This document shows, in pieces, positions 7,701-46,482 of a stretch of 64,000 bases of DNA. Positions within the stretch are counted from its first letter, which is position 1. Each line of letters starts with the position of its first letter. The DNA comes from Mustelus asterias (taxonomy: Eukaryota). The position numbers and the translations under genes were made by a program. The DNA lies in assembly GCF_964213995.1 (NCBI RefSeq), contig NC_135804.1:68262001-68326000 (forward strand), in the 5' to 3' direction. The notes under the pieces were generated by a model, which saw only the letters and a program-made list of their open reading frames with translations, did no database searches and was not told where the DNA came from.

Positions 7701-10700
7701 CAACATTCACGTCATTGTTATACCAAGTAATAGATATATTCCCAGGGTAAAATTCAGCAGATTTACACAGAAGAATCAGAAAAGCCGACGCATTACGTTC
7801 AATCTCACGCCAGTGAATCCGGAGTGGAGTTGGGGGAACTGTGGAACAAGTTACAAAAGAGAGGAAAACTCGATGATGAAAACTCAATGGTGGATCAGCA
7901 TCGATGCGAAATGAATACTTTGTACGGAGCAAATGGGAGGTTCATTTAGATAAGCATTTGACTTTTTTGGACTGTGTGACTAACAGACCATGCTGATCTT
8001 ACATACCACAACAAATTAAAGATTACCGGATAGAAATTTACAGTGAGACACTAGATGAGCTAAAGAATAATATCGTCAGTAGTGATGGAACATCTATAAA
8101 TGCAAGATAAAACAGGATGGAAGAATTTGAAATTATTTTATCAAATAAAAAATTTCAACATGATACACGAAACATATAAAACATTCAATCTCAAATGTGG
8201 TGTGAAATTCTTCATATATTACAGGGCTACATTTTTTTGAATGAAATAAAGATTGAATCATGATGAATTTGCTGAAATGCTGTTCACAACAGCACACCGC
8301 ACACCAGACATCTGAATTTGATATTTTTAAGAAATGTGCAGGGAGAAGATGTAACAAACTCAAATTCAGATACAGCTCTGAAGTAAGGGTAAACGGGAGG
8401 CTAATTTGAAAATGCAGTGAAGAATCGTTACTTCTATAGGTCACATGGAATGCATCTAATCAGCATCGTGATTGAAGTTCTTGCGGGACGATTTGCTCGT
8501 GCTATTGGGAAATGTTAAAATTAACTTACTGAAGTTGTAGGAACAAGGAGGAATTTTCGCAGTTGAATGCTGAGGTGATAGAGAGAAGTAGAGAAGAAAT
8601 GATGAGTAAGAGAGAAAATATGAGTCTAAATACTGATTAATGTGCATGAATCTAAATATGCTGTGCATAGTTCATAAAATTAGTAAATTGCCGGTGCAGG
8701 TTGCTGTTGCGGCCATAACGGAGACCTGACACAAAGGGAAGGGTTTGGTGTTACGTATTTGTAGTATAATTGTTCGGGGATAATATGGAAGAAAGAGGAA
8801 GCGTGATGGTATTGATTAAGCAAAGTATTGTAATCCTGGAGGATATCATAAAATGGTTAAGTGAATAACTTATTTTGCTGGAGCTAAAGGCGGTGCAAGT
8901 ACATTTTTCGATGTAATCCAGAGGACACCAACGAGTTGACGGTATGTAGAGGTACAAAATTGTGAAGAAATCAAAGGTATGTGCAAGAATTAAAGAGCAG
9001 TTTATAATGAGGGAGTTCAATTATCGGAATATAAACTGGAATAGAGGTAGTGCAAAGGGGCAAGAGGGGCAACAATCCATAGAGTGCGTTGAGGGCAATT
9101 TTCTGCAACAGTATGTTTCCATCCCTATGATAGTAGCGGGATGTGGGAACTGCCTTTGTGAATGAGGTGGACAAGTGGATCAAATATCAGTCGAAGAACA
9201 TGTTGCGGAAAGTTTTTGTTTTATCATTAGTGTAACCCCCTGCTGACAACTATATGCTCTGACCAGCTGAGTTAAGTAAAGCAATACCTGGGATGTGCTT
9301 GATGTTATAAGGGGCTACTATGTAAATGTTCAATTAACAGGATCCTGAGTTCTTAGCGGTTGGTGTTGAGCTAGGCTAAATTTCCTATTTACCAATAAAT
9401 GTCAGTACAGGCGTCAATCAAAAGGATTAGTGTATGCAGTTGCAAGCTAGAGTAATAACCTATTAATAATAGCATGGTGCCTCCTAAACTGGTAAGTATG
9501 TAACCCTTATAATAAGAAAAGGTTCAGGACAACCATGCAAAAGGAATAACAAAAGTGAATTTATTTTCTTGCATTGTTGCGTCTCAGAAAACAGGTTAAG
9601 AGTCCCAAACTAAAGATTTTTCAATTAAACAGTTTCAACCCTGAGAAATGTTCAAAATATTACCAAGCACTTGGATTTATAAACGTTGGGGCCCATACGT
9701 TGGTGCACATATGAAGAAAACACACCCTCAACAACACAGTGCTGATACCGTTCAGTGTCTGATAGTATAGTCTCCAGTTACTCATGCAACCACGACACAC
9801 ACAGTCCAGAAGGGTCTGCGAGCAGGAAGATGATGCAGCAGGAATACAAAATGCAGCAAGCTGTCAGCGTAGTGGTGCAGGTCCAGTGCACTGAAGTCTG
9901 TCCTCCGAGGCAGTGCTACTTAGCAAGTTAGCTTCAGCTAATCCTCATTCTCTCCGTCTTCTCAGTGAAAATTACGCCCGGCGTTTATAGCTGACTGTCC
10001 CTCACCGGCAGTTTCTAGCATAAACGTCGACGCTTGAGAGTACAAGCTTTACACTTTTACTCAACAGTAATGAAAATAACAAACAGGACTAAACCTTGCT
10101 GCCTTTCACTTCAAACTGGAAAAAACGAGTTACTAAACTGTGATAAACACGAGCTTTAACTCCACTGTAACATATGTGCCATACTGTGAAGTATGTTAGT
10201 GTACAAATATTATTTGCCTCGGCGTTAAAACTGGGTTTTTATCGCATGGAAACAGATCCTCTTTCCCACGTGTGTCTGCCCACTCCAGCTTCCTCTGTCT
10301 CCCGCCGTTTTTCTTTTTCCCTCCCCCTAAGTAAGCTGATTGGCTTAAAGTGCAGCTCTCTCGAAAACGGATTGGCTCAGCTTACATCACTCAAACAAAC
10401 AGTCTCTGTTCACGGTACTTGGCCCAGTAAACAGGATATTGAAACTCACAAGAAAACAAAGAACAATGGTAAATGTCTTTTTCATTAAATTTACCCATAT
10501 TTCAAGAAAACATACTCTTTTCATTTTTCTTTCATTTATCCTTTTTTCAGGCCCCTACATAAGGTTTAGAGTGGCAATAGAAAAAAGAGAATAACAATTT
10601 AAATTAAGATTAATTAACTGTCAGAAATCCGACGTCAATGGAAAAGAATTAATCTGGACAAAATAAGGTGGATCAAAGCTTGGCAGGAAAGAAAAGCTAA

Positions 10701-13700
10701 GCAAACATTCGAAGCAATGGTAGATCGAGCAGTGTCATCCAATATCCCCTCGAAATGGAAATATATGTTAAAGCTGCTCTCTGGATGACAACAGAGGCAG
10801 AGGTTAAGATGAAGATTGAAAAGAATTATACGCGTATGACAGATGTCAGGTGGATAATATAATGGAGAACCAGATTGAATATAAAAAGTTCAGACGTGGA
10901 GTGACAAAGCAAATCAACAGAAGCAATGAAGAAGTGTGAAAAGAGACTGGCAGATCAAATAGAAGGAATACAAATATATTGTGTAGGCATATAAATAAGA
11001 TAAGTTTGGTAAAAGAGGAGTTGCACTGATTGCAGGCCAAAATGGGAATTTGTGCTTGGAGACCAGAGAGGGAGGGGCTGAGGAATTAAAGAGAGGAAAT
11101 GATTTAAGATTGATAAAGAAGGTGGATTAGGTAGACTGTCATACTTAAATGCACCAGGGCAGTATGAGATGTATGGAAGGATACTGAGATAGGTGTGAGG
11201 GTAAATGGCAGATGCACTGGTTATAATTTTCCAATCTTTCGCAAATCAGGGATGGTGGCAGAAGGCTAGAAATTTGCCAATTGAACATTTGTTCAAAAAC
11301 GAGTTGAAAGATCATTCCAACAACTCTTGACCTTGCAGTTGAACTTCCGTGGAGGGAAAACTTCCAAACGCAATAACGCTGTTCAACTGTGGTAAATTTA
11401 GAAAAAAAATCAGGACGGATTTTTTCAGGGAAAATCGTGTGTCACGAACTTCCTGGATTTTTTAAAGAATTAAGAGAGGGTTGATGAGTGAAATTTTGTT
11501 GAAGTGGTCCACATGGATATTCAAAAAAAATTGTAATACTTTTGCATAACAGAACTGTGAACAAACTCAGAACTATTGTAATAAAAGGGAAAGTAACAAC
11601 ATGGATACAGAATTGACTGAGTAACAAGAAATACGGAACACCAGTTGATTTTTTTTGTTTTTTTTAAGGCAGGAGAAACATTTGTATTGGAGTTCCCCGC
11701 GTGTCAGTGTTGGGACACTATATGCATTAATAACACAGGTTTTGGTGTACAAGGCACTATTTCACCATTTGCGGATCAAACACAAACATGAAGCAATGTG
11801 AAGTTTCAGAAGGATAATTAGGAACCTTAAACGGGGCATATAGAAGTTTGTGGAAAGGGTAGGCGCCTGCCAGATGAGCGTCAATGAAGAGAAATATTTA
11901 TTCATATTGGTAGTAGAACATAAAGGGTACAACTCTGATGCAGACACCGGAGCAGGGAAGATCGATATATAAATGCCTAAGTCATTGACGATGGCGGAAT
12001 GAGAGATGTGTAAATAAAATATACAGTATCCAAGGCATTCTTAATAAGGACATAGAATAGAAGAAAAAGTTGTATACGTTGAACATGTCTCAGGCATCGT
12101 TGCGACCTCAGATGGATATTATATTGAGTTCTGGGTACCATAATTTAGGAAAAATATGAAGACATTGGAGAGAGTGCGGAAAAGATTCACGAGAACGATT
12201 CTTGGGTTGAGGAATTTCATTTAAGATGATACAAATGTCTGGACTATTTTCCGTGGCAAAAAAGAATACTGCGATGAGATTTGATCGAGGTATTTAAAAT
12301 TATCAATGGTCTGAACAGAGTATTTCAAGAAAAAGCCTTAAATTAATGAAAGGTTGGAAAAGGAGGCGGGATAAATTTAAAGTAATTCGTAAAATAAGCA
12401 AAACCGACACGACGAAATTTTTTTTCACGCAGGGGATGATTCAATTCTTTCACGCAGGAAAACTTTTGACGCCAGGAGGTTCAATCACAGCATTCAAAAT
12501 AGAGTCAGATTGCTATTTGAAACAGAAGGGTGTAGGGACAAGGAGGGAAAATGGCAATCGTGTGTTGCTCATCAAAGAGCTGGTGATAGCACGACGAGTC
12601 ATATCGCCTCATTCTGCGCTGTAACAAATCTGTCATGTCTGTCATTCTGAGTGAGTGCCCCTATGGGCGGCACGGTGGTAAGTGGTTAGCACTGTTGCCT
12701 CACAGCACGGAGGGCCCGAGTGCGATTCCGGCCCTGGCTATTGTGCGAACGTCCGCTGAATTGCCGATAAGTGTCCCAAGATGTGCGAATTAGCAGGGTA
12801 AATACAGGAGGTTGCGGAAATAGGGTGGGCTGCTCTGCCGAAGAGTTGGTGCAAATTCGAATTGCTTCCTTCTGCACTGTCGGGAATCTAGGAATTATCT
12901 GCATTAATTTGTCATAAGAGTGAAATGATTAAATTTTACCATTGAAAGTCGAACAGTCACCCTCGCTAAAATATATTTAATTATTTTATTCGTATCACAA
13001 GTAGGCTTACATTAACACTACAATTAAGTTACTATGAAAATCCCCAAGCCGACACACTCTGACACCTGTTCAGATACATTGCGGGAAATTCAGCAGGGCC
13101 AATGCACTTAAACAGCACATCTTTCGGACTGTGGGATGAAAGTGGAACACCCAGAGGAAACCTACGCAGACACGTGAGAACGTGCAGACTCCGCATAGAC
13201 AGTGACCCAAGCCGGGAATGAACCGTAGACCTCTGAAACTGTGAGGCAGCAGTGCCAAGCACTGTGCCACTGTGTTTAACTAAATCCAGAAAACAATATG
13301 ATACACTTCTCGTTCATTTAGTGCATAGAATATATCTACGTAAATATAGGTATTGAAAATGATTTTAGCCTTGATTCCAAGTAATATAGTATATGAGTCC
13401 TCAAAGTATATTCAGAAAAAAAATCTTACCCAGCATGTTGTTGGCTTTTGTGTGTGTATGTGTATGTCTCTGTCTGGTGAATATGTTTATGTAGCCATTC
13501 CACTTGCCATTGACAACTAGCTTTGATCCAGTCCCATTTGCAATCACACTGTCAGAATGTTTCACTCCGCAGTAGTAAACTCCTGAGTCACCACTGCTAA
13601 TATTCAGCAGCTGTAAAGTGGCCTCTCCTTTTTTCAAGTTTCGTGTTCTGTTGTCTTCACATGACGGCAAAAATTGCTCTTCTCCTAATTTCCACCAATG

Positions 13701-15111
13701 GATACTCAAGTCGGTATTATCACGGTTAAAAGGGAAAGCACAGTAGAACGTAATGTTTCCGCCTTCTATCACATTGGCACTTTCAGGGACTTGGGACACT
13801 TTCTTCTGTGCATCTGTAACATCCATGAGCAAATACACGCTGCAGCAATTAGATACACGACAAACATAAAACGTGCTGACAATAATCATGGATGTGCGAA
13901 TTGGGGATTATTTCCTTTGAACAGACAGTATGACATACTGCAAGCAGTAACTGCACCGCTTATAACAGGTTCATGTCTCCTGCTGAGATCTGACTGCCCT
14001 GTTTTGCAATTGCTCTGCCATGCTACCTCACTTCTCTTGAAATTCATCTGATGTGAAGAGCAGATTACAGGAGAACATTCTGAATTGCATGTGTCTTCAC
14101 GGATAGAAATTGAAGGTTTATTAGATCAGGCAAGGAGCATTTCACATGATATGTGGGTGGTACGACGCCTGCCCTTTGGAATCAGTTCGGGACGAAAGGA
14201 CATCGTCCGAAATGTACTGTTGCCTCACTTATTTGATCAGTTGATATATCCTAGCACAATTTCAAATTCGCGTCATTTATTTTTTATGGTCATGATCAGA
14301 TAACCAAAAGCTCACACGCCTTTCAGCAGCTGACGGTCCTTGGTCACACACCTCGGCAACGCAGGCATATGCTGTTATTCTTACCCAAGTCTATCACGCT
14401 GTGCTTGTCTATGTTAAGTGATATTTAGCAGATACGGTTAATTTCTACATTGAATACGAAATTGCCTGTTATCTTGTTTTGCTTTATCTATGCGGCTTAT
14501 ATCTACTAACAAGGTCGCACAGAATATACAATTGACGATACTTCCCGTGTGCAATTAACAGGTTGTTGATAAATAATGCTATAGTCATGTTCCAACATCG
14601 ATGTTCAGGCCTTTGTTAGGAATATTAATTGTAACCAGTATTACATGCATAAAGTATACAACAGGCTTAATTTTAACATCAAACTTTTATAGTAGTATTG
14701 GTAACCGAATGTTTTGGAACGTAGTGCAGAGAAATGCCAAGTTCACCTAAATCAAGTTTAGAAGCTCCAAAATGCCCTGGGACTTATCCTGAATCGGTCC
14801 AAGAGACTGATCAATTGGCCATTGCAATCCTTAGTTGAAAACGGCGTTGTTATTTCTATCATCCGATTGTGCAATTGTCCTTGACGTTAATAAGACATAA
14901 TCGTGACGTTAATCCAACTAACTTCGGAACGCGCATAGCAATGCGTCGCGGGAAGCGAAAAAAAATCAATGATATCCAAAAATAATATATACATATTCAA
15001 ACGAAAAATGTAGATTTCCAGCGTTCTAAGCATTTTGCACAAGTTGAAAAGTCAAGTGGAAATACCTGAATAAATAATCGCCAACGCCAGTAACCAGGGA
15101 AGCAAACACAT
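1438..15111 (-). CDS. Gene A: non-rearranging VJ-C1 type I transmembrane IgSF receptor (multi-exon span; 3' end uncertain)
   Basis: Leader, V, C1, TM and cytoplasmic exons join in consistent phase with no stop through exon 5239-5282; similar architecture to B7-H6/NCR3LG1, SIRP, tapasin and VJ-C1/PRARP-type genes; no ortholog assignable. Confidence 0.8.
2530..2862 (+). mobile_element. tRNA-derived SINE / non-autonomous LINE derivative
   Basis: B-box-like gttcgaatc; body ...ccagacccacagca...; tail gggatgggccataaatgctggcccggccagc shared with LINE 3' ends at ~3550, 5400 and 63300. Confidence 0.65.
2870..3610 (+). mobile_element. Degraded LINE (CR1/L2 group) 3' fragment
   Basis: ccttgacattcaatggcattaccat... 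RT C-terminus, homologous to 62690-63355; ends gggcaataaatgctggc. Confidence 0.65.
4705..4857 (-). CDS. Gene A candidate cytoplasmic exon (LSSPASYENILRK...)
   Basis: Acceptor ctgttcaatcag| phase 0 matches the preceding phase-0 donor; YENI motif; either splices at CTG|GTACAA (4705) or reads on to stop at 4678. Confidence 0.5.
5239..5282 (-). CDS. Gene A short cytoplasmic exon (G-EVNSMERTEHPTNQ)
   Basis: atgaccag| acceptor and perfect CAG|GTAAGT donor; 44 nt, phase 1 to 0, in frame with the TM exon. Confidence 0.7.
5885..6192 (-). mobile_element. Degraded DeuSINE-type SINE
   Basis: ctctcaaacagcgccatggaatattttacatgcac...ccctcagttctgcact resembles the Deu core domain. Confidence 0.5.
6352..6465 (-). 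CDS. Gene A transmembrane exon (GDDNVLWYTQVYGSTGGGIMILLLVIILRKIHPVTKCK-G)
   Basis: ttttacag| acceptor, AAG|GTAGGA donor, 114 nt phase 1-1; hydrophobic stretch followed by basic stop-transfer residues. Confidence 0.8.
7150..7345 (+). mobile_element. Degraded DeuSINE-like fragment
   Basis: cactctcgcctc... head; atatccct, cattgtgg and caacacttcaaaagta motifs. Confidence 0.35.
7530..7838 (-). CDS. Gene A Ig C1-set exon
   Basis: ttccacag| acceptor, GAG|GTACAA donor, 309 nt phase 1-1; LLCKSAEFYPGNISITWY...YTCESSH C1 signature. Confidence 0.9.
8560..12640 (+). mobile_element. Old degraded CR1 LINE in gene A intron (interrupted by 9231-10559)
   Basis: Remnants of the EN domain (IMREFNYRNINW...CVEGNFLQQYV), RT and C-terminus (FFFTQ); many stops and indels. 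Confidence 0.75.
9231..10559. mobile_element. LTR-like insertion (probable solo LTR)
   Basis: TGTAA...CTACA termini; flanks ttag/taag (4-bp TSD with 1 mismatch); CR1 sequence resumes in register; minus strand has CCAAT boxes (~10340, ~10372), TATAAA (~9985) and AATAAA (~9560). Confidence 0.5.
12665..12895 (+). mobile_element. tRNA-derived SINE (HE1/V-SINE-like)
   Basis: gggcggcacggtgg...gttagcactgttgcctcacagc head; CR1-like tail cttctgcactgt. Confidence 0.75.
12985..13272 (-). mobile_element. tRNA-derived SINE
   Basis: ggactgtggga..acccagaggaaacc..cagacagtgacccaagccgggaat..gaggcagcagtgc core in reverse. Confidence 0.8.
13508..13813 (-). CDS. Gene A Ig V-set (VJ-type) exon
   Basis: gttacag| acceptor phase 1; 306 nt; NITFYC...HWWK...ATLQLLNISSGDSGVYYC...ANGTGSKLVV; donor is G|GCAAGT (GC-AG). 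Confidence 0.9.
15066..15111 (-). CDS. Gene A leader exon (MCLLPWLLALAIIYS-D)
   Basis: aaaATG, hydrophobic signal peptide, TCAG|GTATTT donor phase 1 matching the V exon. Confidence 0.8.
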
Positions 15112-16388: not shown

Positions 16389-16700
16389 TGTATTATCAGT
16401 TCGGATAGGGATCAGGATTAAAAAGTGATCGAGGTAACATGGGGGGAGGTGGGGGGGGGCGAGGGGGGGGGAGTAATTTACAGTCCCCTACCGGTGGCTA
16501 AACAGTACGATAGAATATACAAGAAATAATAAATGGGGTGTGTCAGAAAGCTACCACAATCATCATGGGTGAATTTAATCCACACAGAGGTTAGGCGAAT
16601 CAAATTCGCACAGGTAACTTGGAATATAACTTCATAGAATGCATTCTGGACAATTTATTTAACGCAGCAGTTTCCAGAGGTAACCAGGCAACATTGTAGT

Positions 16701-17474
16701 GTAGTGATCCATTTTGGCAGATCCAATGGGATGGAGCAGCAGTATAAAATGAAGGGTACCATTCTTAGCAGTGTAGAGGATCAGAAGGACCTTGGGGTCC
16801 GGGTCCATAGGACTCTTAAATCGGCCTCGCAGGTGGAGGATGCGGTCAAGAAGGCGTATGGCGTACTAGCCTTCATTAATCGAGGGATTGAGTTTAGGAG
16901 TCGGGAGATAATGCTGCAGCTTTATAGGACCCTGGTTAGACCCCACTTGGAGTACTGCGCGCAGTTCTGGTCACCTCATTACAGGAAAGATGTTGAAGCC
17001 ATTGAAAGGGTGCAGAGGAGATTTACAAGGATGTTGCCTGGATTGGGGGGCATGCCTTATGAGGATAGGTTGAGGGAGCTTGGTCTGTTCTCCCTGGAGA
17101 GACGAAGGATGAGAGGTGACCTGATAGAGGTTTACAAGATGTTGAGGGGTCTGGATAGGGTGGACTCTCAGAGGCTATTTCCAAGGGCTGAAATGGTTGC
17201 TACGAGAGGACACAGGTTTAAGGTGCTGGGGGGTAGGTACAGGGGGGATGTCAGGGGTAAGTTTTTCACTCAGAGGGTGGTGGGTGAGTGGAATCGGCTG
17301 ACGTCGGTGGTGGTGGAGGCAAACTCGTTGGGGTCTTTTAAGAGACTTCTGGATGAGTACATGGGATTTAATGGGATTGAGGGCTATAGATAGGCCTAGA
17401 GGTGGGGATGTGATCGGCGCAACTTGTGGGCCGAAGGGCCTGTTTGTGCTGTGACTTTCTATGTTCTATGTTCT
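16701..17474 (+). mobile_element. Young 5'-truncated CR1 LINE
   Basis: Intact 229-aa ORF2 C-terminus, GGGCCGAAGGGCC stem, (TTCTATG)n tail, ATTGTAGT target duplication (16693-16700 / 17475-17482). Confidence 0.95.
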
Positions 17475-21881: not shown

Positions 21882-23082
21882 AGAAACACAAAAACATAGA
21901 AAAACTACAGCACAAAACAGGCCCTTCGGCCCCACAAGTTGTGCTGAACATATCCTAGGCCTTCTAGGCCTGCCTATAACCCTCCATCCTATTAAGTCCC
22001 ACGGACTCATCCAGAAGTCTCTTAAAATACCCTATTGAGTTTGCCTCCACCACCACTGACGGCAGCCGAATCCACTCGCCTACCACCCTCTGTGTGAAAC
22101 ACTTCCCCCTAACATTTCCCCTGTACCTACCCCCCAGCACCTTCAACCTGTGTCCTCTCATAGCAGCCATTTCCACCCTGGGAAAAAGCCTCTGAGAGTC
22201 CACCCGATCAATGCCTCTCAACATCTTATATACCTCTATTAGATCTCCTCTCATCCTACGTCTCTCCAAGGATAAAAAAAACCGAGCTCCCTCAGCCTTT
22301 CCTCATAAGGCATGCCACTCAATCCAGGCAACATCCTTGTAAATCTCCTCTGCACCCTTTCAATCTTTTCCACATCCTTCCTGTAATGAGGCGAACAGAA
22401 CTGAGCACAGTCCTCCAAGTGGGGTCTGATGAGGGTCTTATATAGCTGCATCATTATCCCCGGACTCATAAACTCAATCCCTCGATTGATAAAGGCCAGC
22501 ACACCATACGCCTTCTTAACCACCTCCTCCACCCCGCGGGGCCAATTTTAAAGTCCTATGGACCCGGACCCCAAGGTCCTTCTGATCCTCTACAGTACTA
22601 AGAGTCTTTCCCTTTACATTGTACTCCTTCATCCCATTTGACCTGCCAAAATGGACCACTACGCATTTATCTGGGTTGAAGTCCATCTGCCACTTCTCCG
22701 CCCAGTCTTGCATCCTATCTATGTCCCTCTGTAACTTCTGACATCCCTTCAGACTATCCACAACCCCACCAACCTTCGTGTCGACGGCAAACTTACCAAC
22801 CCATCCCTCCACTTCCTCTTCCAGGTCATTTATGAAAATGACAAACAGCAAGGGTCCCAGAGCATATCCCTGGGGCACACCACTGGTGATCAACCTCCAT
22901 TTAGAAAAAGGCCCACCGACACCCACTCTCTGTCTCCTTTGGGCAAGCCAGTTCTGGATCCACAGGGCAGCAGCCCCTTGGATCCCATGCCCTCTCACTT
23001 TTTCTAGAAGCCTTGCATGGGGGCCTTATCGAACGCCTTGCTAAAATCCATATAAACCACATCTACCGCTTTCCCTTCGTCA
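21882..23082 (-). mobile_element. Young 5'-truncated CR1 (frameshifted ORF2 3' part)
   Basis: ORFs 22516-22998, 22251-22532 and 21964-22269 are consecutive RT/C-terminal pieces; same subfamily as 53197-56196. Confidence 0.95.
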
Positions 23083-24198
23083 CTGATGTTGAGTAATCTT
23101 TTTTTTTCCAAAAACTTTAGAAGCTGATGATAGGAAGTTCCCATGATATAGACCAAAAGGTACAAAACGAGATGAACGTGCACCGTTCGTATCTCTAGGA
23201 TGCATTTTTAATGATTTGCTGCCCTCGTACGTGATTCTCATCGACAGAAAGAAAGCTAATGTTGCCCTCATTTTTTTATATGCAAAAGGTAATAATTTCG
23301 ATTTGATCAGCTACAAACCCATTAGTTTGACATTAGTACGAGCTAACATGCTGGAAGGAATCAATAGAGATATCACCTATGATTTTGTTTTTGGAAGAGA
23401 CCATAATTTTAATGTTGCAAAACATGAATTTTAAACGGAAGGACAGAGTATGTATTACAAATGTAATTGTATGTTTGAAGAAAGTCTGAAATCCGTGCAT
23501 GATCCAAGCCCAGCATTGCTTTCATTGTCATGTAAAAAGCTTTAGATCTGGCACTGCACAACAGAGAGCGAATGTTGATAGGATTTAAAGCTCTAGTATT
23601 AGTGATAATGTTATGAATTGGATGAAGAACTGGCTGAAAGTCGCACACAAACATGGTTATAGATTTTGATCTCTTTGGGGACCAATGATGCAAGTAATGG
23701 TCAACTATTTGGTTGGTCTTAATTATTTAGATCGATCGTTTGGACATTGGTGCTGTTGGCACATGCATCAAATTTTCAAAACTTATCAAGATGTATATGA
23801 GCCTGAGAGCTGCAGACGATGTTCTCCCGTTTCAATAGGTCTTAATGTTGTGCTGAGAGACTCTGGTCACGAATGACAAATAATACCAAATTAGTAGAAT
23901 TCCATGGTTATGCATCTGTGAATTGTAACCATTTCACCAAGTCTTCGGGGCAAAGTACCAACCAAAATGCAAACATAATGCATTCATCGCTGATGGCATA
24001 TTTTCAATGCAATAAATTTATGTCTGAAACAAGTTTGGATTGGCGGATATTCAAACAAAAAGTCATTATAAGACGATGTGTACTGTCTTGTTCATTTTAT
24101 CAGGCATTCATCTTACTTTCAGACCTTCGGTAACCTCGCAAGACTAAGATATCAAGGTGTTAAATGATTGCGAACAGAGAGCATCGTAGTTATCTTAA

Positions 24199-24323
24199 GG
24201 GCGGCACAGTTGCACAGTGATTATCATTCCTGCCTCACAGCTCCAGGGACCTGGGTTCAATTCCCAGCTTGGGTCACTGTCTGTGTGGAGTTTGCACATT
24301 CTCCCTGTGTCTGTGTGGGTTTC
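24199..24323 (+). mobile_element. SINE 5' half (split by CR1 insertion)
   Basis: gggcggcacag...gggtttc; continues at 28596 tttcctctgggtgctccggtttcctcccacagtcc. Confidence 0.85.
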
Positions 24324-24858
24324 AAAGAACAAAGAACAAAGAACAATACAGCACAGGAACAGGCCCTTCGGCCCCCCAAGCCCGCGCCGCTCCCCGGTCC
24401 AGGATTGAATCCTGAATCCAGGATCCCCGCCCAATTTTCCAGCCTATCTACATACCAATATCGTATCCACCGAGCTGTCCCTCACAGCTACGATGCTTTG
24501 TTCATTACAACCTATTAACTTACCCCCACCCCCCCATTCCAGACCATGTGATCTCCAGGGAGAGGCGAAAACCCAGAGTGAAAAACCCCAGGACCAATAT
24601 GGGGAAAAAAATCTGTGAAATTCCTCTCCGACCCCCTGAGGCGATCGAAACGAGTCCAGGAGATCACAATGGCCCCGATCGGAAAATGCTTCCCAACCCG
24701 AGTCATTTCCACTTCCACGAACACCATATGAATTCCCTGCCCCCGAGACAGGTTCCCAACTATCCGCAGTCTGTACTGGCACCAGCAAGATGATCATAGA
24801 ATGAAGCCTTGAAACGAGAAACCAGGAACAATTAGCCCGCGCCGCTCCCTGGTCCAAA

Positions 24859-27741
24859 CTAGACCACTCTTTTGTATCCCTCCATTCCCACTCCGTTCAT
24901 ATAGCTGTCCAGATAAGTCTTAAACGTTCCCAGTGTGTCCGCCTCCACCACCTTGCCCGGCAACACATTCCAGGCCCCCACGACCCTCTGTGTGAAATAT
25001 GTCCTTCTGATATCTGTGTTAAACCTCCCCCCCTTCACCTTGAACCTATGACCCCTCGTGAACGTCACCACCGACCCGGGGAAAAGCTTCCCACCGTTCA
25101 CCCTATCTATGCCTTTCATAATTTTATACACCTCTATTAAGTCTCCCCTCATCCTCCGTCTTTCCAAGGAGAACAACCCCAGTTTCCCCAATCTCTCCTC
25201 ATAACCAAGCCCCTCCATACCAGGCAACATCCTGGTAAACCTCCTCTGTACTCTCTCCAAAGCCTCCACGTCCTTCTGGTAGTGTGGTGACCAGAACTGG
25301 ACGCAGTATTCCAAATGCGGCCGAACCAACGTTCTATACATCTGCAACATCAGACCCCAACTTTTATACTCTATGCCCCGTCCTATAAAGGCAAGCATGC
25401 CATATGCCTTCTTCACCACCTTCTCCACCTGTGACGTCACCTTCAAAGATCTGTGGACTTGCACACCCAGGTCCCTCTGCGTCTCTACACCCTTTATGGT
25501 TCTTCCATTTATCGTGTAGCTCCTCCCTACATTATTTCCACCAAAATGCATCACTTCGCATTTATCAGGATTGAACTCCATCTGCCATTTCCTTGCCCAA
25601 ATTTCCAGCCTATCTATATCCTTCTGTAGCCTCTGACAATGCTCCTCACTATCTGCAAGTCCTGCCAGTTTTGTGTCGTCCGCAAACTTACTGATCACCC
25701 CAGTTACTCCTTCTTCCAGATCATTTATATAAATCACAAACAGCAGTGGTCCCAATACAGAGCCCTGCGGTACACCACTAGTCACAGGCCTCCAGCCGGA
25801 AAAAGACCCTTCCACTACCACCCTCTGTCTTCTATGACCAAGCCAGTTCTCCACCCATCTAGCCACCTCCCCCTTTATCCCATGGGATCCAACCTTTTTC
25901 ACTAGCCTACCATGAGGGACTTTGTCAAATGCTTTACTAAAGTCCATATAGACAACATCCACGGCCCTTCCTTCGTCAACCATTTTGGTCACTTCTTCAA
26001 AAAACACCACCAGGTTCGTGAGGCATGACCTCCCTCTCACAAAACCATGTTGACTATCGTTAATGAGTTTATTCCTTTCTAAATGCGCATACATCCTATC
26101 TTTAAGAATCTTCTCCAACAACTTCCCCACCACGGACGTCAAGCTCACCGGCCTATAATTACCCGGGTTACCCTTCCTACCCTTCTTAAATAACGGGACC
26201 ACATTGGCTATCCTCCAATCCTCTGGGACCTCACCTGTGTCCAGTGACGAGACAAAGATTTGCGTCAGAGGCCCAACGATTTCACCTCTCGTTTCCCTGA
26301 GCAGCCTTGGATAGATTCCATCAGGCCCTGGGGATTTGTCAGTCTTTATATTCTCTAACAAACCTAACACTTCCTCCTTTGTAATGGAGATTTTCTCCAA
26401 CGGTTCAACACTCCCCTCTGAGACACTCCCAGTCAACACATCCCTCTCCTTAGTGAATACCGACGCAAAGTATTCATTTAGGATCTCCCCTACCTCTTTG
26501 GGCTCCAAGCATAAGTCCCCACTTTTGTCCCTGAGAGGTCCGATTTTTTCCCTAACAACCCTTTTGTTCCTAACGTTTGAAAAAAATGCCTTGGGATTCT
26601 CCTTAATCCTGTCTGCCAAGAACATTTCGTGACCCCTTTTTGCTCTTCTAATTCCCCGTTTGAGTATTTTCCTACTTTCATTATACTCCTCCAGAGCTCC
26701 CTCCGTTTTTAGCTGCTTGGACCTAACATACGCCTCTCTTTTCCTTTTGACCAGTCCCTCAATTTCCCTGGTTATCCACGGTTCTCTAATCCTACCCTTC
26801 CTATCCTTCTTTTTTACAGGCACATGCTTGTCCTGTAGCCCTAACAACCGTTCCTTAAAAGACTGCCACATACCAGATGTGGATTTACCCTCAAACAGCC
26901 TCTCCCAATCAAGAGCTGCCAATTTCTGCCTGATCCCAATAAAGTTAGCCTTCCCCCAATCCAACACCTTACCCTTGGGACACCACTCATCCTTTTCCAT
27001 CACTATCCTAAAGCTAACAGAATTGTGGTCACTATTTGCCACATGTTCCCCAACCAAAACTTTGAAGACCTGTCCGGGCTCATTCCCCAGCACCAGGTCC
27101 AGTATAGCCCCCTCTCTAGTTGGGCTGTCCACATATTGTTCCAACGAACCCTCCTGTACACATTTTACAAATGCCTCACCATCCAGAGTCCCTGCCCTCA
27201 GCGATTTCCAGTCTATACCAGGGAAATTGAAGTCTCCCACTACAACAACCCTATATTTCCTGCACCTATCCAGTATCTCCTGACATATCCATTCTTCCAC
27301 TTCCCTTGGGCTGTTGGGGGGCCTGTAGTACACCCCCAACATAGTGACTGCGCCTTTCCTGTTTCTAAGCTCCACCCAGAGTGACTCGCTACACGACTCC
27401 TCCGAATTGTCCTCCCTCTGCACCGCTGTAATATGCTCTCCAACCAATACCGCTACTCCCCCACCTCTTTTGGCCCCTCCTCTGTCTCGCCTAAAACACT
27501 TGTACCCTGGAATATTCAGCTGCCAGTCCTGTCCCTCTTTCAACCAAGTCTCTGTCACCGCAACCACATCCAAATTCCTCGTGCGCATTAAGGCCCCAAG
27601 TTCGTCTGTTTTACCTGCTACGCTCCTTGCATTGAAGTATAAGCACTCCAGACCCCCAGGCTCAGTGAGGTCGTCCTCCCCCAGAGTGCTCTTCTTCTTT
27701 GCCAGCCTTGTCCCAGCCCCAAGCTCGTCCCCAGCCACCAC
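24859..27741 (-). CDS. CR1 ORF2: APE endonuclease + reverse transcriptase
   Basis: YFNARS, VTETWL, GDFN, SDH (APE); [18 protein letters not shown] (RT); 960 aa without stop; the listed start is GTG, first in-frame ATG is at 27588. Confidence 0.95.
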   Translation of the reverse strand: MVAGDELGAGTRLAKKKSTLGEDDLTEPGGLECLYFNARSVAGKTDELGALMRTRNLDVVAVTETWLKEGQDWQLNIPGYKCFRRDRGGAKRGGGVAVLVGEHITAVQREDNSEESCSESLWVELRNRKGAVTMLGVYYRPPNSPREVEEWICQEILDRCRKYRVVVVGDFNFPGIDWKSLRAGTLDGEAFVKCVQEGSLEQYVDSPTREGAILDLVLGNEPGQVFKVLVGEHVANSDHNSVSFRIVMEKDEWCPKGKVLDWGKANFIGIRQKLAALDWERLFEGKSTSGMWQSFKERLLGLQDKHVPVKKKDRKGRIREPWITREIEGLVKRKREAYVRSKQLKTEGALEEYNESRKILKRGIRRAKRGHEMFLADRIKENPKAFFSNVRNKRVVREKIGPLRDKSGDLCLEPKEVGEILNEYFASVFTKERDVLTGSVSEGSVEPLEKISITKEEVLGLLENIKTDKSPGPDGIYPRLLRETRGEIVGPLTQIFVSSLDTGEVPEDWRIANVVPLFKKGRKGNPGNYRPVSLTSVVGKLLEKILKDRMYAHLERNKLINDSQHGFVRGRSCLTNLVVFFEEVTKMVDEGRAVDVVYMDFSKAFDKVPHGRLVKKVGSHGIKGEVARWVENWLGHRRQRVVVEGSFSGWRPVTSGVPQGSVLGPLLFVIYINDLEEGVTGVISKFADDTKLAGLADSEEHCQRLQKDIDRLEIWARKWQMEFNPDKCEVMHFGGNNVGRSYTINGRTIKGVETQRDLGVQVHRSLKVTSQVEKVVKKAYGMLAFIGRGIEYKSWGLMLQMYRTLVRPHLEYCVQFWSPHYQKDVEALERVQRRFTRMLPGMEGLGYEERLGKLGLFSLERRRMRGDLIEVYKIMKGIDRVNGGKLFPGSVVTFTRGHRFKVKGGRFNTDIRRTYFTQRVVGAWNVLPGKVVEADTLGTFKTYLDSYMNGVGMEGYKRVV

Positions 27742-27782
27742 ACTTATAGACCTAATATTTTGATCCCCACCCCCCTGCCATA

Positions 27783-28595
27783 CTAGTTTAAACCCCCCCG
27801 AACTGCATTAGCAAAGCTCCCAGCCAGGATATTTGTGCCCTTCCAACTTAGTTGTGACCCCTCCCTCTTGTACAGGTGCCATCCTCTCCTGAAAACCTCC
27901 CATTGGTCTATGAAAATAAAGCCCTCCCTCCTGGACCAGTCCTTTAGCCAGGCATTCATTTGAACCAACTCCCTATTCTTATCCTCACTGGCACGAGGCA
28001 TTGGGAGCAGCCCAGAGATGGCCACCCTAGTGACCCTACTTTTTAACCTATTTCCCAACTCCCTGAATTGCTCTCTTAGGACCCCCCTACTCTTCCTATC
28101 TACGTCATTTCCACCAATGTGTATAATGACATCCGTTTCTTTATCTTCCCCTTTTAAAATGCCTCCTATCCGCTCGGAGACATCCGTGACCCCAGCACCA
28201 GGTAGGCAGACTACCATCCTGGAGTCCCGTTCGCCCCCACAGAATCGCCTGTCTGTCCCTCTAACTGACGCATCCCCCACCACTATCGCTCTCCTAACCC
28301 CTCTCTTCCCTTTCCGGGCCACAGAGCCTGACTGTGTGCCAGTGACCTGGTCACTGTGTCTTACCCCTGGAGAGGCACACTCCTCCACACTATCTAAAAC
28401 AATGTACCTGTTTTGGAGTGGGACAACCACAGGTGGCCCTTCTTCTAACTGTCCACTCCCCTCCCCTCTTACACCTGTCACCAAGCCCTTCCTATTTTGA
28501 GACACCTCTGGAGACCTCCCTTGTACTTTACCCTTCAGCCCTTTACTCCTCCTAACTGTGACCCACGTGTCATTCTCCCGATGCCCCGGTGTAAC
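27783..28595 (-). CDS. CR1 ORF1 (SGNH/GDSL esterase-like), N-terminally truncated
   Basis: PLQNRY, IVVGDASVRGTDRRFC, VCLPGA and HIGGND blocks; the first ~10 aa of the ORF-track call come from the flanking SINE. Confidence 0.85.
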   Translation of the reverse strand, partial: VTPGHRENDTWVTVRRSKGLKGKVQGRSPEVSQNRKGLVTGVRGEGSGQLEEGPPVVVPLQNRYIVLDSVEECASPGVRHSDQVTGTQSGSVARKGKRGVRRAIVVGDASVRGTDRRFCGGERDSRMVVCLPGAGVTDVSERIGGILKGEDKETDVIIHIGGNDVDRKSRGVLREQFRELGNRLKSRVTRVAISGLLPMPRASEDKNRELVQMNAWLKDWSRREGFIFIDQWEVFRRGWHLYKREGSQLSWKGTNILAGSFANAVRGGLN

Positions 28596-28820
28596 TTTCC
28601 TCTGGGTGCTCCGGTTTCCTCCCACAGTCCACAGGGGGTATGCGGGTTAGGTACATTGGCCATGCTAAATTGCCCTTTAGTGTCCCGGGATGTGCAAATT
28701 AGACAGATTAGCGGGGTAGAAATGTGGGATTACGAGAATAGGGCTTGGCTGGGTTGTTGTCGGAGCAGGCTCAATGGGCCGAATGGCCTCCTTCTACACT
28801 GTAGCTATTCTATGACTCTA
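28596..28820 (+). mobile_element. SINE 3' half
   Basis: Continuation of 24199-24323; ends gggccgaatggcctccttctacactgtag...ctatgactcta. Confidence 0.85.
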
Positions 28821-32765: not shown

Positions 32766-35008
32766 TGAAGCTGCGTTCGCAATTTCTGACGTTTATAACG
32801 TCGTAGAACCACAGAGAGCAATGGAACATCTAATCAGAAAGAAGGTTGTACTTCATAACCACAAGGACAATGTGGTTGTCTCTCCCACCGATACTGTCAT
32901 GAGGAAACGCATTTCTGACATGGAGAATGATGACTATGCGGCCCATTGGGCTTTGCCTTCGGGCAAATTTTCCAACAATTTGTTCTAGACTCATTCTGAT
33001 CGAAATGTCCCTGCAACGGACCTTAGGCCAGTTGTTCTACCATTTTATAGTTCCACACGTCCTTTAATATCGAAGGAACGTGGCATTTTCCAAGTCATGC
33101 CAACTGAACCACAAAAACTTTAAACGATCATGTTGAGGGCATAGCAATGTTCTTAACTGCTCAATTTAAATAACTGGAACAAAAATTAGCTCATCCTGGC
33201 AATTAATAATTCAATCGTGTCATGATGCTCTTCAGTATTGTAAATTTGATTTTAAAAAATGATCGTAATACGATGCCTTTCCTTGGCATGGTATAATTTT
33301 CTTAAACTGTGAATGCGGACGCAAGATACATGTTTAGTTTCTGTGCGATTTCCTTACTTTCATTTGCAATTTCACAGTCATCAGTTAGCATGCAAAAAAA
33401 ACCAAATTAGTCATTCGCATCCACTACCCTCTAATATATTTGCACAAGTTCGTTTATGTTGACTTTATAAACTCTTGCATTTTTTAACATGCCTACCTTA
33501 TCACCGTTTGAGATTCTTAATTAACCCTATTCCAACATTTTGAAATTAGTTTTTTTCCCTTTAATGCCGGCAGCAATTTTTAAGTTGAGAATAGCTATCT
33601 TCATGTATCGATTTGTTTTGCACGAGCTATCAAATGTCCTATTCCTGCTCCAAATTGTATTCATGCTTTTATGGTCAATGGATTCAACCAGATGAATTCG
33701 GAAACAGTCTTTCGATAGGCTTAAGATATTCGCAACATTTTTAATTGATCATAGGATTTTCGACATACACTTGACAAAGTCGATATCTTGTACCATTGTT
33801 TCTTTCCAAAAATGCAAGCACCTCTTTACCGATTCATAATTTCTTAACCTCAGCTGATGACCTTGGGAAACCAGCGGTATATTGACAGGATATTTGCCTA
33901 CGCAACATTCTTTTTCAAAATTCAGTCAAATCAAGCCACAGAGTAAATCATGTGGCATAAATAAGGTTGAGACAAATGTCGCTCACCATTTGTGAAAATC
34001 GGACCGCCGTTTCCGCCGAAGCACAGTTAAAGTCACGAATTTGCCGTCCAACAGACCATACTTTCAAAATTTACGCAAATATGTATCATTGTTGGTCTTT
34101 CGACTCATATACCATTAGCAACATTACGTTGCTGAGTTTACTTGATATATTGAAATTGAATTCAGCACGAAAGAAATAGGATTTATCTATTTTAGTGCTC
34201 GTGCTATTTAAGTGGCGTCGTAAATCTCAAACTACCAACCGAATGCTGCAAATGATTTTTGTATGTGTCAAAGATTGATTTTCAGATTCGAATTACTGTC
34301 ATCCACACTATTCACAATATCCGGTGTCCAATGTAACGCTTCATTCAAGCTTGTTTTGTAGCACATCATAAAATCCCCGTTACCGTCCGCAACACCTATA
34401 ACAGTACTGATCACAGACATTGACGAAGTGGAAATTGTGCAGCTTTCTGCCCTCTGCAACACATGTTCTAATTGAAATGCAGCGGAAAAGTTGCTGCACC
34501 AGTTTTCCATTGCGTTAATGCAGGCAAAGCGGGACTGTTGCAAAGGATTTCCAATGTGTGCAGTAGCCTATCAGGACAAAGTTGTTTTATTGTCTGACTC
34601 TTTAACCTGTTTGACATTAGGTTGAAATCTCCTGTCAACGTTAAAAACATTATGGGCCACCTTCGTCACCTAAGCGCTTTCCCATGGATTTTCAACAGAA
34701 ATTTGCAAAAAAAACCTATTGCAATTTACAGCGCAAATGAAGTGCAGGGGTCTATATTCTATACCTTGAGACCTATGTAAGCAATTAACAGTCGTATGTC
34801 CTTAAACAAAAAATGTTCGAATATTTTATATCTCCAACAATAACTAAAACTTCAAAGAATTAGCCTCCCCAAACTACAAATTCAGTGCCAGAGAGTTTGT
34901 TTATCAGTAAGATTTAACAAAACGCGTTTACGGTGTATTTTTATCGGTATTGACAAGATCCATTTTTTCCTGGTGAGATTATTTAGTATAAATGAGATAG
35001 TAGAACAC

Positions 35009-35919
35009 AAAGAACAAAGAACAAAGAACAATACAGCACAGGAACAGGCCCTTCGGCCCTCCAAGCCCGCGCCGCTCCCCGGTCCAGGATTGAATCCTGA
35101 ATCCAGGATCCCCGCCCAATTTTCCAGCCTATCTACATCCTAATATCCTATCCACCGAGCTGTCCCTCACAGCTACGATGCTTTGTTCATCACAACCTAT
35201 TAACTCACCCCCATCCCCCCCATTCCAGACCATGTGATCTCCAGGGAGAGGCGAAAACCCAGAGTGAAAACCCCAGGGCCAATATGGGGAAAAAAAATCT
35301 GGGAAATACCTCTCCGACCCCCTGAGGCGATCGAAACGAGTCCAGGAGATCACACTGGCCCTGATCGGAAAATGCTTCCCAACCCTATTCATTTCCACTT
35401 CCATGAACACCATATGAATTCCCTGCCCCCGAGACAGGTTCCCAACTATCCGCAGTCTCGCTCTGTACTGGCACCAGCAAGATGATCATAGAATGAAGCC
35501 TTGAAACGAGAAACAAAGAACAATTAGCCCGCGCCGCTCCCTGGTCCAAACTAGACCACTCTTTTGTATCCCTCCATTCCCACCCCGTTCATATAGCTGT
35601 CTAGATAAGTCTTAAACGTTCCCAGTGTGTCCGCCTCCACCACCTTGCCCGGCAACACATTCCAGGTCCCCACGATCCTCTGTGTAAAATATGTCCTTCT
35701 GATATCTGTGTTAAACCTCCCCCCCTTCACCTTGAACCTATGACCCCTCGTGAACGTCACCACCGACCCGGGGAAAAGCTTCCCACCGTTCACCCTATCT
35801 ATGCCTTTCATAATTTTATACACCTCTATTAAGTCTCCCCTCATCCTCCGTCTTTCCAAGGAGAACAACCCCAGTTTCCCCAATCTCTCCTCATAACCAA
35901 GCCCCTCCATACCAGGCAA
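35009..35919 (-). mobile_element. Young CR1 3' fragment, same long-3'UTR subfamily as 24324-28595
   Basis: Near-identical ORF2 C-terminus and 3' UTR module. Confidence 0.95.
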
Positions 35920-36935: not shown

Positions 36936-39630
36936 GTACCTGCTTCTTTTCTGTCTTGTGTCTCTCAACATAAACTTAAATATTGTTTCTTTCACAGATA
37001 TGAACATATATCTACATTGAACTTTCGTAATCATTCTCCATCCTCTATACCCCCTCCCCCTACCCCTACCCTACCACGAAACATTCCGCAAACCCCTTGA
37101 GATTTATAAAGTCAATTTTACAGTATTTATAATTAATTGTTTCAGCAGGTACTTCAATTCGAGTAATTCAACTTCCTGAAAGTCTGACAAAAATCCAAGG
37201 CACAACTGTCACTTTTCATTGTTCTGTACCGTACCCTCCAGACGACTCGAATGTGACCTTCAACTGGTTGAAAGAAGGCGAAAGTCAATATCTGAGTACA
37301 GCCGCCGATCACCGAAAGGTTTTCGGCTCCAAAACCACATTCAGTGGCTTTCTTCGCATCACCAATGTAAGCTTTCAGGATGCTGGAGTATATTACTGCT
37401 CGGTGCAACAACGTGGCTACATAACTGGAAACACGATTGGATCTAATTTAACTGTATGGGGTGAGTATCGAGATTTTGCAGAATGCATTATGTGATTGCG
37501 ACTTATAAAACAGACCAAACATCAGATAATAATTGCAATTATTAGATCAAATCATTATATCCACGGGACATTGGAAGATTTAAGAATTAACAATAGAAAG
37601 CACGAGCCATTTCATTTAGACATTCAATTGCCTGAAAGGGTAAACAAAAACGTCGTCCAGGATTTTGGAAAAATGAAGAAATTACAGAAAATGCTGCAAT
37701 TGGTTATCAGAACTGGCAGCATCTGTCGAGGGATGATCAGAGCTTCGAGTTTGTCAGAACTGCCAAAATAGCCATTAGATTATCATCTGAAATCGCGTGC
37801 AAGATTTCCTATCGTAGTGAGATATCCCAGCAACGTCCAGCGAACCGACAACAAGGCCGGTAATACAATACCTGAAGCTAGCAATAACACATTCAATTTT
37901 TCAGTTAAATATTAACTACTGAGATTGCTACAAATATCGATCGCGACCATTTTCTCTACAATGTAACTTGCAGAACTGTGATATTCGTGACTGTTGCTCT
38001 GTTTGTAACAGTCAGAAACGTGTGCAGAAAGAAATTCCATTCCAACAGTCTCGAAAACTGAAAATGTCCTCGTTTGCAATATCGCCAGAAATTAAATCAG
38101 TTCTTCTCGTCCGATCCACACATAGGTTCTATTTTTAATTTCTTTAGAATCATTAAGATTCGTAGGAATATGACATGTTCCATACATCATGTGTGATCAC
38201 AAGCACTCGGTAATAATCGTTTGTAAACTTTTTTAAAAATAAGCTCTGATGTGACATCAGAGTGTCATAGATTTTATTTTATGTTCTGTTTTATAGCACC
38301 TCCAAGCCAAGTGCAAATTCTCCCCAGTGATCCTCGAAGCGATTCATCCGTATCCCTTGTGTGTCAGGCGACCGCATTTTACCCTGAAATTATTGCACTC
38401 GAATGGTATAAAGGTGATATCGAAATTTCAACTGGGGTGTCTGTCTTAAAACAGCAAAACTCAGACGGATTGTACGAAGCTCGCAGCTTTTGGGAAGAGT
38501 CGCAGCCTGCTCCGATTGGAAGTGTTTACAGCTGTCTGGTCTCTCATGTTACATTGGAAACTCCATTAGTTGTTACGCATGTCATTACATATTCTAACGC
38601 AGGTACATATCTAACAAGACAACCGAGATAGTCAACTGTCATTAATACCTTACCGGTCAGAAAGGACAACCACTTAAATCAATACAAAGTACAATACACT
38701 CTCAATCTTAACCAAAAGTTCTGCGCATATATATAGAACAGCAATCCTTGACTCCGTTTTAAACGGTCTTTATTTGCATATTTTTATAAATTTAATATTA
38801 TGTGGCTGGATTTTTAGACACAACGGTGTGGTTGGGATTGGTGCAGGGAATGATTGTCGCATTTATCATAGAACAACAGCGAACTGGCAGCCCACACTTA
38901 ATGTTATTTTTATTTGACTGTAATCTCTTCAATATAAAGAGGGCACCACAATTTAAGGACGGTGTCCATGTCTTAAAGTGGTTGCACAGTGGTAAATAGA
39001 ATGGTGTCAGAACTGAAGATTTCAACGACATACAGAAATTAGATAAACTACGATTTCCCCCAGTTAATCGAGCAGCCTATGTTGAGGCTTCAAATAATTA
39101 AAGAAAAACATGAGAAATTACAATAAGCATTACCCAGTGACAGAATAAATTGTAATCGGAAGATACCGATCTAAGATCATTGATAAATGACCCACAGGCG
39201 TCAGAAGACGGGAGGGGGGGGGGGGTGGTTCGTGGGGGGGGGGGGGGGGAGAGAATGGAGGGGGGGGGGGACGTTGGTGAGAGGAATGGTGATGGTATGC
39301 ATCGAATTGTTATAAAACAGAACACTCCGCCTGAAGAGTCATCGGAGCCGGTGAATATATGGCTCTAACATGAAAGAAAACCAGAGATAATAAGTTCGCT
39401 AAACTTGCCTGTTAAATGTGCAATTATAGAAAGCACGATTGAAGGTGAAAATATGTTTGCTTTGTGAGCGGTCAATGCACTTCATAATATTTGATCTTTT
39501 CTTGAATATTAATTTTGTAGACAGTCAATTCTCCCGTCTTCTGCTGATTTCTGGATGTATTGGATATGGTCTGATATGCCTACTCTTCAGTTTCTTAATT
39601 TGGAAGCGACGCCAATTAAAGGATTTGTAG
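36881..39630 (+). CDS. Gene B: paralogous non-rearranging VJ-C1 transmembrane IgSF receptor with short tail (multi-exon span)
   Basis: Four exons join in frame; exon sizes and motifs parallel gene A. Confidence 0.8.
37146..37460 (+). CDS. Gene B Ig V-set (VJ-type) exon
   Basis: ttcag|cag NAGNAG acceptor, G|GTGAGT donor, 315 nt phase 1-1; VIQLPES..TVTFHC..FNWLKEG..FLRITNVSFQDAGVYYC..GNTIGSNLTV. Confidence 0.9.
38297..38602 (+). CDS. Gene B Ig C1-set exon
   Basis: ttttatag| acceptor, CAG|GTACAT donor, 306 nt; SLVCQATAFYPEIIALEWY...YSCLVSH. Confidence 0.9.
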
Positions 39631-46283: not shown

Positions 46284-46482
46284 ACTTTCCACGCTTAAAA
46301 TAATATTTAGTAATCCTTCGTAAAATAAGCTTTGACAAAATGTGATATTACTTTGTTTTACTGATCTTTGCAATCAGTTCACAATATCATTTTAATTTCT
46401 GCCACTGTTGAAAAGCGTTTCACAATTAAGTAAAAGAAGCTTCCAAAATAACTTAATCGCAGTTACATATCGAACTTGGATC

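Follow-up and report, generated by a model that had tools for sequence, protein, structure and literature searches.

At the -1 ribosomal frameshifting sites of viruses, among them U_UUA_AAC in coronaviruses, G_UUA_AAC in equine arteritis virus and the gag-pol sites of retroviruses, a plentiful upstream protein is followed in the -1 frame by a scarce downstream polymerase, and U_UUA_AAC ranks with the most shift-prone sites in the available part of a review of the subject (PMC5009743). Long interspersed nuclear elements (LINEs) provide a precedent for the same idea, as a legend in another review states that TRE5-A and TRE3-A of Dictyostelium, which are retrotransposons lacking long terminal repeats (non-LTR) and carrying an endonuclease of the apurinic/apyrimidinic type (APE), need a -1 frameshift for their second open reading frame, ORF2 (PMC5911963). 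SART1 and mammalian L1, also LINEs with bicistronic RNAs and low ORF2 output, produce ORF2 as a protein in its own right, started from an AUG at the ORF1 stop codon or beyond it, by way of a UAAUG overlap in SART1 and of reinitiation in L1 (accessible portions of PMC5972666 and PMC3894237). This work concerns the translation of ORF2 in the CR1 group, which dominates among the retrotransposons of most vertebrates (PMC13343379, available part), as represented in a 64,000-nucleotide (nt) stretch of the Mustelus asterias genome (contig NC_135804.1, positions 68,262,001 to 68,326,000), hereafter the window. On its minus strand, ORF1 of a CR1 copy ends GGT TTA AAC TAG, with the slippery heptamer U UUA AAC directly adjoining the stop codon, and ORF2 follows in the -1 frame without an AUG of its own; hence ORF2 is likely a frameshift product.

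The junction is a real, deeply conserved RNA signal. An earlier sequence-only reading of the window had proposed an ORF1-ORF2 fusion in the style of gag-pol, rather than reinitiation of the L1 type, and comparison between lineages supports this proposal: the ORF2 of this LINE is probably made as a fusion by programmed -1 frameshifting. The junction bears on how LINE ORF2s are translated; the available part of PMC3894237 treats their initiation as unsettled and does not list frameshifting for it. No literature on CR1 frameshifting was found: CR1 is not mentioned in the accessible portion of the frameshift review (PMC5009743), the word 'frameshift' occurs 0 times in that of PMC13343379, and nothing on the translation of CR1 ORF2 appears in those of PMC2734521, PMC3905857, PMC5006619, PMC4255032, PMC11203168, PMC4120745 and PMC4176376. 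The CR1 ORFs were first described in 1997, in papers on chicken and turtle that lie outside this coverage and may have suggested it, and priority is not established.

Conservation of the ORF1-ORF2 junction

Junctions were compared between 19 representatives, one per cluster, of which 11 came from the same genome and eight from metagenomes; there were 43 clusters in all, those left out being displaced or broken copies, near duplicates and L2-like loci, and an open copy was chosen where one existed. ORF1 identity among the representatives ranges from 22 to 86%, with a median of 36%. This cross-family comparison had been suggested as a check, and across divergent CR1 lineages the heptamer, the adjoining stop codon and the -1 frame are kept, at synonymous sites. 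Firstly, the penultimate ORF1 codon is TTA in 19/19 lineages, against 12.7% of other leucine codons. Secondly, the last codon is AAC in 19/19, against 36% of other asparagine codons. Thirdly, a T precedes TTA AAC in 18/19 lineages, across five amino acids (Gly, Ala, Cys, Asp and Ser), the exception being locus L121 with G UUA AAC. Fourthly, a single codon is kept in 0/41 other conserved ORF1 columns, where the mean share of the top codon is 58%. Departures from U UUA AAC are themselves slippery, consisting of G UUA AAC in L121 and one same-genome copy, and U UUA AAU in five copies; a G_UU(A) site is listed for equine arteritis virus in the available part of PMC5009743. The heptamer has a mean pairwise identity of 0.98, compared with 0.41 for the 7 nt that follow the stop codon, 0.73 for a downstream G tract and 0.35 beyond it; the stop codon is TAG in 12 lineages, TAA in six and TGA in one.

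The motif might instead be kept for the C-terminal Leu-Asn of ORF1, or because splicing, packaging or transcription needs it as an RNA signal; ORF2 would then come from an RNA that is spliced or shorter, or start at a near-cognate codon such as GUG 27741. Leu-Asn is indeed nearly invariant among close homologues, but a protein constraint is unable to fix TTA, AAC and the preceding T. Together with the evidence on start codons and splicing given below, this leaves such explanations very unlikely.

Chance, or decay within one broken copy, is the least probable account of all and is already refuted. Only the 5' truncation of the window copy speaks for it, whereas the junction is conserved across the 19 lineages and U UUA AAC occurs at 0/3114 internal ORF1 positions, at 14 of which some in-frame X XXY YYZ heptamer is present; in-frame slippery heptamers occur at 0/970 positions of the window copy's ORF2. 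A 441-nt junction query found 1434 candidates in the genome, and the 40 that were scored were all ~100% identical; the window CR1 family is young. The identical junction in 30/30 fetched near-identical copies shows that it is not an artefact of decay. Combining this query with six divergent ORF1 protein queries gave 190 genome loci, or 182 after removing eight duplicates, which are the best matches and no random sample. The ORF1 stop codon was at its expected place in 163/182, and the seven bases before it were TTTAAAC in 157, TTTAAAT in five and GTTAAAC in one. The remaining 19 comprised 11 with the motif and stop codon nearby behind an indel or early stop, six having the heptamer with an altered stop codon, and two deletions.

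Beyond this genome, the named relatives of the window ORF1 come from sharks, rays and skates. A scan of metagenome contigs identified 38 loci, of which 12 retained the ORF1 end and at least 150 nt behind it, most of the others stopping inside ORF1; viral contigs and prokaryote genome contigs contained no relative. Six of the metagenome representatives resemble a swallow protein, and carry TTTAAAC followed by TAG or TGA; the label 'bird-type' used for them is inferred from this likeness to the swallow ORF1 protein. Two distant metagenome loci carry G TTA AAC TAG (L121) and T TTA AAC TAG (L122), and in both the -1 frame is open to the APE motif. By eye, the motif also stands at the ORF1 end in 17 CR1 consensus rows and one Crack row of the PMC13343379 supplement, while four matches look incidental; these figures refer to the first 400 letters per consensus and to 22 of 23 matches viewed, and are counts of motif matches only. 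The hosts of the 17 CR1 rows are alligator, crocodile, bowfin, bullfrog, chimaera, stingray, coelacanth, bearded dragon, sawfish, catshark and dogfish.

A set of 150 ORF1-like proteins extended the comparison at the protein level. In 87 of them the last esterase motif lies 15-50 residues from the end, and 54 of these 87 close with a dipeptide that a terminal heptamer would fit, whereas 5% of dipeptides inside the proteins do so: 45 end in LN, eight in QGN and one in KN. Named proteins with such endings belong to turtles, a snake, lizards, a frog and a swallow. The terminal Leu-Asn is 25 to 39 residues past the last esterase motif, a variable distance that ties this ending to the stop codon, not to the fold. 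As a protein-level observation only, the QGN endings (P0075, P0076, P0083, P0089, P0092, P0110, P0121 and P0142) would fit G GGA AAC, the SKN ending of P0098 fits A AAA AAC, and FF one codon before the end of P0082 and P0099 fits U UUU UUY.

L2-like loci have a different junction. ORF1 ends in TGA CTG without the heptamer at L139:5045-5050, L124:2947-2952 and L151:744-749, and in L139 ORF2 continues in frame 0 behind TGA CTG, making this a readthrough-like junction. Kajikawa reportedly proposed in 2012 that the ORF2 of the zebrafish element ZfL2-1 is expressed through suppression of the stop codon, which would also yield a fusion, though in frame 0 and without a slippery site, where CR1 has the -1 frame and U UUA AAC. 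ZfL2-1, of the L2 clade, has an esterase ORF1 like that of CR1 (PMC3905857, available part).

Reading frame and routes into ORF2

As the sequence-only reading had described, ORF2 lies in the -1 frame relative to ORF1. It is continuously open across the heptamer, from 27807 to 24859, or 982 codons from stop to stop. The 960-amino acid (aa) ORF2 it had reported is the 960 codons counted from GUG 27741, compared with 909 from the first in-frame AUG at 27588. This AUG was correctly placed downstream of the first APE motif, YFNARS, such that a start there would delete the motif from the ORF2 product, and the AUG immediately past the ORF1 stop codon (27781) opens another frame, which meets a stop after nine codons. 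Two details need amendment. The -1 slip had been written as TTT AAA CTA GTA TGG; the frame is open, but the Phe-Lys is a conceptual reading only. In the established model of tandem slippage, the fusion would keep the Leu-Asn of ORF1 and continue with Leu-Val-Trp. Likewise, both overlapping heptamers are in the ORF1 phase, but G GGU UUA is present in only 7/19 lineages, and was rejected as the main slip site.

The -1 frame relation is also kept. It is the majority state in 16/18 scored lineages, and is found in one of two copies in each of the other two. From the stop codon to the APE asparagine, 14 different distances occur, ranging from 107 to 245 nt, and every one of them is 2 mod 3. Among the 163 same-genome loci with a stop codon in place, this asparagine was located in 141, being in the -1 frame in 125, the +1 frame in nine and frame 0 in seven; in those 125, the intervening stretch is open in the -1 frame in 113, in frame 0 in two and in the +1 frame in one. 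A shuffled spacer would be open in the -1 frame with a probability of 0.005-0.24 per lineage. The -1 frame is also closed 3 to 15 nt upstream of the heptamer in 11/19 lineages, hence the overlap shared between lineages is the heptamer itself, and ribosomes must enter the frame at or after it.

Entry at this point could also be achieved by coupled termination and reinitiation in the -1 frame at or near the ORF1 stop codon, using an AUG if one is present, like the UAAUG of SART1, and otherwise doing without, which has been proposed for L1, the heptamer and G tract serving to retain the ribosome. Such routes are used by SART1 and L1 (available parts of PMC5972666 and PMC5009743), and would equally be expected to leave an open -1 linker. 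UAAUG is found in the ORF2 frame in 2/19 lineages, and an AUG two codons further on in three bird-type lineages. However, the codon overlapping the stop codon in the ORF2 frame is GTA in the window family and takes ten forms across the lineages, and 8/18 lineages have no in-frame AUG ahead of the APE motif. Such an AUG is present in 0/30 copies of the window family and in 0/16, 0/17 and 0/20 copies of other multi-copy lineages, with a ninth lineage having one in 2/6 copies. Furthermore, reinitiation predicts neither an exact X XXY YYZ heptamer with slippery variants nor its phase. Reinitiation is an unlikely explanation, albeit the strongest of the competitors to frameshifting. Two lineages, L035 and L167, combine the heptamer with an overlapping UAAUG in the ORF2 frame, and may use both mechanisms or be changing from one to the other.

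The window family itself lacks the hallmarks of the other described routes. It has neither a SART1-type UAAUG in the ORF2 frame nor an L1-type spacer followed by an ORF2 AUG before the endonuclease (0/30 copies), and readthrough of the stop codon does not fit, as ORF2 is not in frame 0 behind it. Near-cognate codons do occur in most linkers, as a motif kept for some other reason would allow, but GUG 27741 was rejected as the start of ORF2 because three sister families have ACT, GTA and ATA in its place. Where the stop codon is TAG, the motif ends in YAG, resembling a splice acceptor; this possibility was also rejected, since TAA and TGA lineages have no AG, and no GT-AG joint spanned the junction among five joints in contigs of relatives, a weak negative from four runs, three of which are only presumed to be RNA and all of which consist of contigs, uninformative on expression and translation. 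Neither alternative accounts for a frame that is held from the heptamer onward.

The G tract and the proposed mechanism

The sequence-only reading had also pointed to a G-rich tract ~7 nt downstream as a possible stimulator. The tract is present, with its first base 6 nt past the heptamer and a conserved core that starts at 10 nt. G is found at +10 in 19/19 lineages, at +13 in 17/19 and at +19 in 16/19, against a background of 34%; these conserved positions are the third codon positions of the -1 frame. There was no Rfam match at the junction, and a two-tier G-quadruplex is predicted in only 7/19 lineages. Natural use of G-quadruplexes in frameshifting was not known at the time of the review PMC5009743, the available part of which places structural stimulators at 5-9 nt, and associates longer spacers with linear signals and trans-acting factors. 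The tract would most likely act as a linear signal, through a bound protein or contact with the ribosome, and less likely as a G-quadruplex; its action is the weakest step of the proposed mechanism.

In this mechanism, ORF1 would be translated in a cap-dependent manner, and most ribosomes would terminate at its stop codon, setting free the 338-aa ORF1p. A minority would be delayed, both by this stop codon and by the G tract then lying at the mRNA entry channel, would slip one base back, and would then pass through a variable linker of 35-80 residues into the endonuclease and reverse transcriptase. The predicted fusion of ORF1, linker, APE and reverse transcriptase is ~1313 aa for this element, and the outcome would be a low ORF2:ORF1 ratio with the enzyme tethered to ORF1p. 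The resemblance to viral sites covers the class and phase of the heptamer and, as proposed for CR1, a plentiful upstream protein followed in the -1 frame by a scarce polymerase (viral sites: PMC5009743, available part). Unlike these viruses, CR1 is a non-LTR retrotransposon without a protease, its stop codon follows the heptamer immediately, and no stem-loop or duplex was found 5-9 nt downstream, only the G tract at 10 nt. A further analogy for the stimulator is the 3' signal, linear or distant, that lies at the entry channel's edge in arteriviruses (nsp1beta/PCBP) and cardioviruses, which have 11-14 nt spacers and trans-acting factors (same review and extent), compared with 10 nt in CR1; it is an analogy only, as the CR1 signal is G-rich and has no known binding factor. 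The Dictyostelium TRE elements differ from CR1 in their unrelated ORF1, their clade and their host.

Several observations weigh against frameshifting, or restrict how far it can be extended. Firstly, no conserved stem-loop was detected within 70 or 120 nt downstream in the 19 lineages (shuffled folding, nested structures, z -1.8 to +2.2), including the canonical coronavirus- or retrovirus-type stem-loop 5-9 nt after the heptamer. Secondly, in duplex scans of up to 1.5 kb downstream, 0.9 kb upstream and the whole window copy, the G tract had no long-range partner common to the lineages; at 10 nt, the tract is outside the usual 5-9 nt spacing. Thirdly, an in-frame AUG does precede the APE motif in 9/18 lineages. 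Its place varies: two lineages have it across the stop codon, three (bird-type) two codons on, and four at 39 to 84 nt, counted from where the heptamer starts. Judging from these sequences, some lineages could also reinitiate, and this is the chief finding opposed to frameshifting as the sole route. Fourthly, the third-position excess in the linker is only mild. Fifthly, the lineages are related and form three deep groups in the ORF1 tree, hence the counts given above are not independent and are not to be multiplied. Finally, 33/87 distant ORF1-like proteins have no heptamer-compatible terminal dipeptide, and therefore the mechanism does not extend to esterase LINEs in general.

A broader synthesis is correspondingly tentative, with slightly less than even prospects of holding in full. 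In it, the canonical CR1 LINEs of hosts ranging from sharks to birds, and those of distant animal lineages, would make a gag-pol-like fusion by a -1 frameshift that depends on the stop codon and a linear G tract, without an RNA fold, and possibly read by a host protein or by the ORF1 protein. Distant lineages would exchange one heptamer for another, as seen with G UUA AAC and predicted for G GGA AAC from the QGN endings, and L2 relatives would reach the same fusion by readthrough. Were frameshifting confirmed, CR1 ORF2 would have been annotated so far with the wrong start, its active form would carry the ORF1 esterase and coiled coil, constructs for CR1 retrotransposition would need an intact junction, and host factors acting on frameshifting would be candidates for the control of CR1. 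The junction is a cassette of 40 nt, and its stimulator may be of an unusual type.

The CR1 copy in the window and its surroundings

The features of the window copy are listed below. It has the esterase ORF1, the ORF2 with APE and reverse transcriptase, the short tandem-repeat 3' end without poly(A), and the 5' truncation expected of the CR1 clade, in agreement with the description of CR1 elements, including the esterase-type ORF1, in the available part of PMC13343379. The assignment to CR1 is made on domains, the 3' end and a junction like that of CR1-labelled rows, the tree having been built on ORF1 only.

Features of the CR1 copy, in window coordinates
Feature	Position	Strand	Evidence or remark
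5'-truncated CR1 LINE copy, 4.27 kb	24323..28595	minus	99.4% identity to copy L001 across 2537 nt
ORF1 remnant, SGNH/GDSL esterase domain	27783..28595	minus	PF13472, PF17182
Second heptamer G GGU UUA, overlapping the first	27789..27795	minus	
Slippery heptamer U UUA AAC, final seven bases of ORF1, in ORF1 phase	27786..27792	minus	
ORF1 stop codon TAG, adjoining the heptamer	27783..27785	minus	
G tract, candidate stimulator (putative function), 10 nt 3' of the heptamer	27764..27775	minus	
Open -1 frame linker without AUG, from slip site to first endonuclease motif	27640..27786	minus	
YFNARS, first APE motif, upstream of the first in-frame AUG	27622..27639	minus	PF03372 begins here
First in-frame AUG of ORF2	27586..27588	minus	
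Uninterrupted ORF2 in the -1 frame, with APE endonuclease and reverse transcriptase	24859..27792	minus	PF03372, PF14529, PF00078
3' untranslated region (UTR), ending in three 7-nt tandem units, without poly(A)	24323..24858	minus	

ORF1 is 338 aa at full length in sister copies, and the window copy is missing ~68 N-terminal codons as well as the 5' UTR; hence its junction records the signal of the source element, and its own use of it is unlikely. The insertion splits a repeat (28596-28810 and 24168-24322) with a target duplication of 3-4 nt, the junctions being read directly. We take this repeat to be like a short interspersed nuclear element (SINE-like).

The esterase motifs of the window family diverge from those of its relatives, with GDAS in place of GDSI and EGSQL in place of DGLHL (window 27783-28300, minus strand; L001:702-1715). 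From these departures, the catalytic Ser, Asp and His look to have been lost, despite the family's recent activity. Several bird-type ORF1s likewise have no esterase His.

The 3' UTR is ~535 nt long, and one short segment is present twice in it, just past the ORF2 stop codon and near the tail; a second copy of the element's 3' end is found at 35008-35919. This is among the further 5'-truncated CR1 pieces in the window (16638-17393, 22020-23082, 35008-35919, 43987-45097, 46457-48709, 53334-55843 and 61099-62211), which are 66-97% identical to the element, and none of which contains the ORF1-ORF2 motif. The element is flanked by pairs of immunoglobulin (Ig) V-set and C1-set exons, at 37136-37495 and 38227-38628 on the plus strand, and at 13404-13907 and 7444-7941 on the minus strand; these two divergently oriented pairs are an Ig-superfamily receptor gene cluster.

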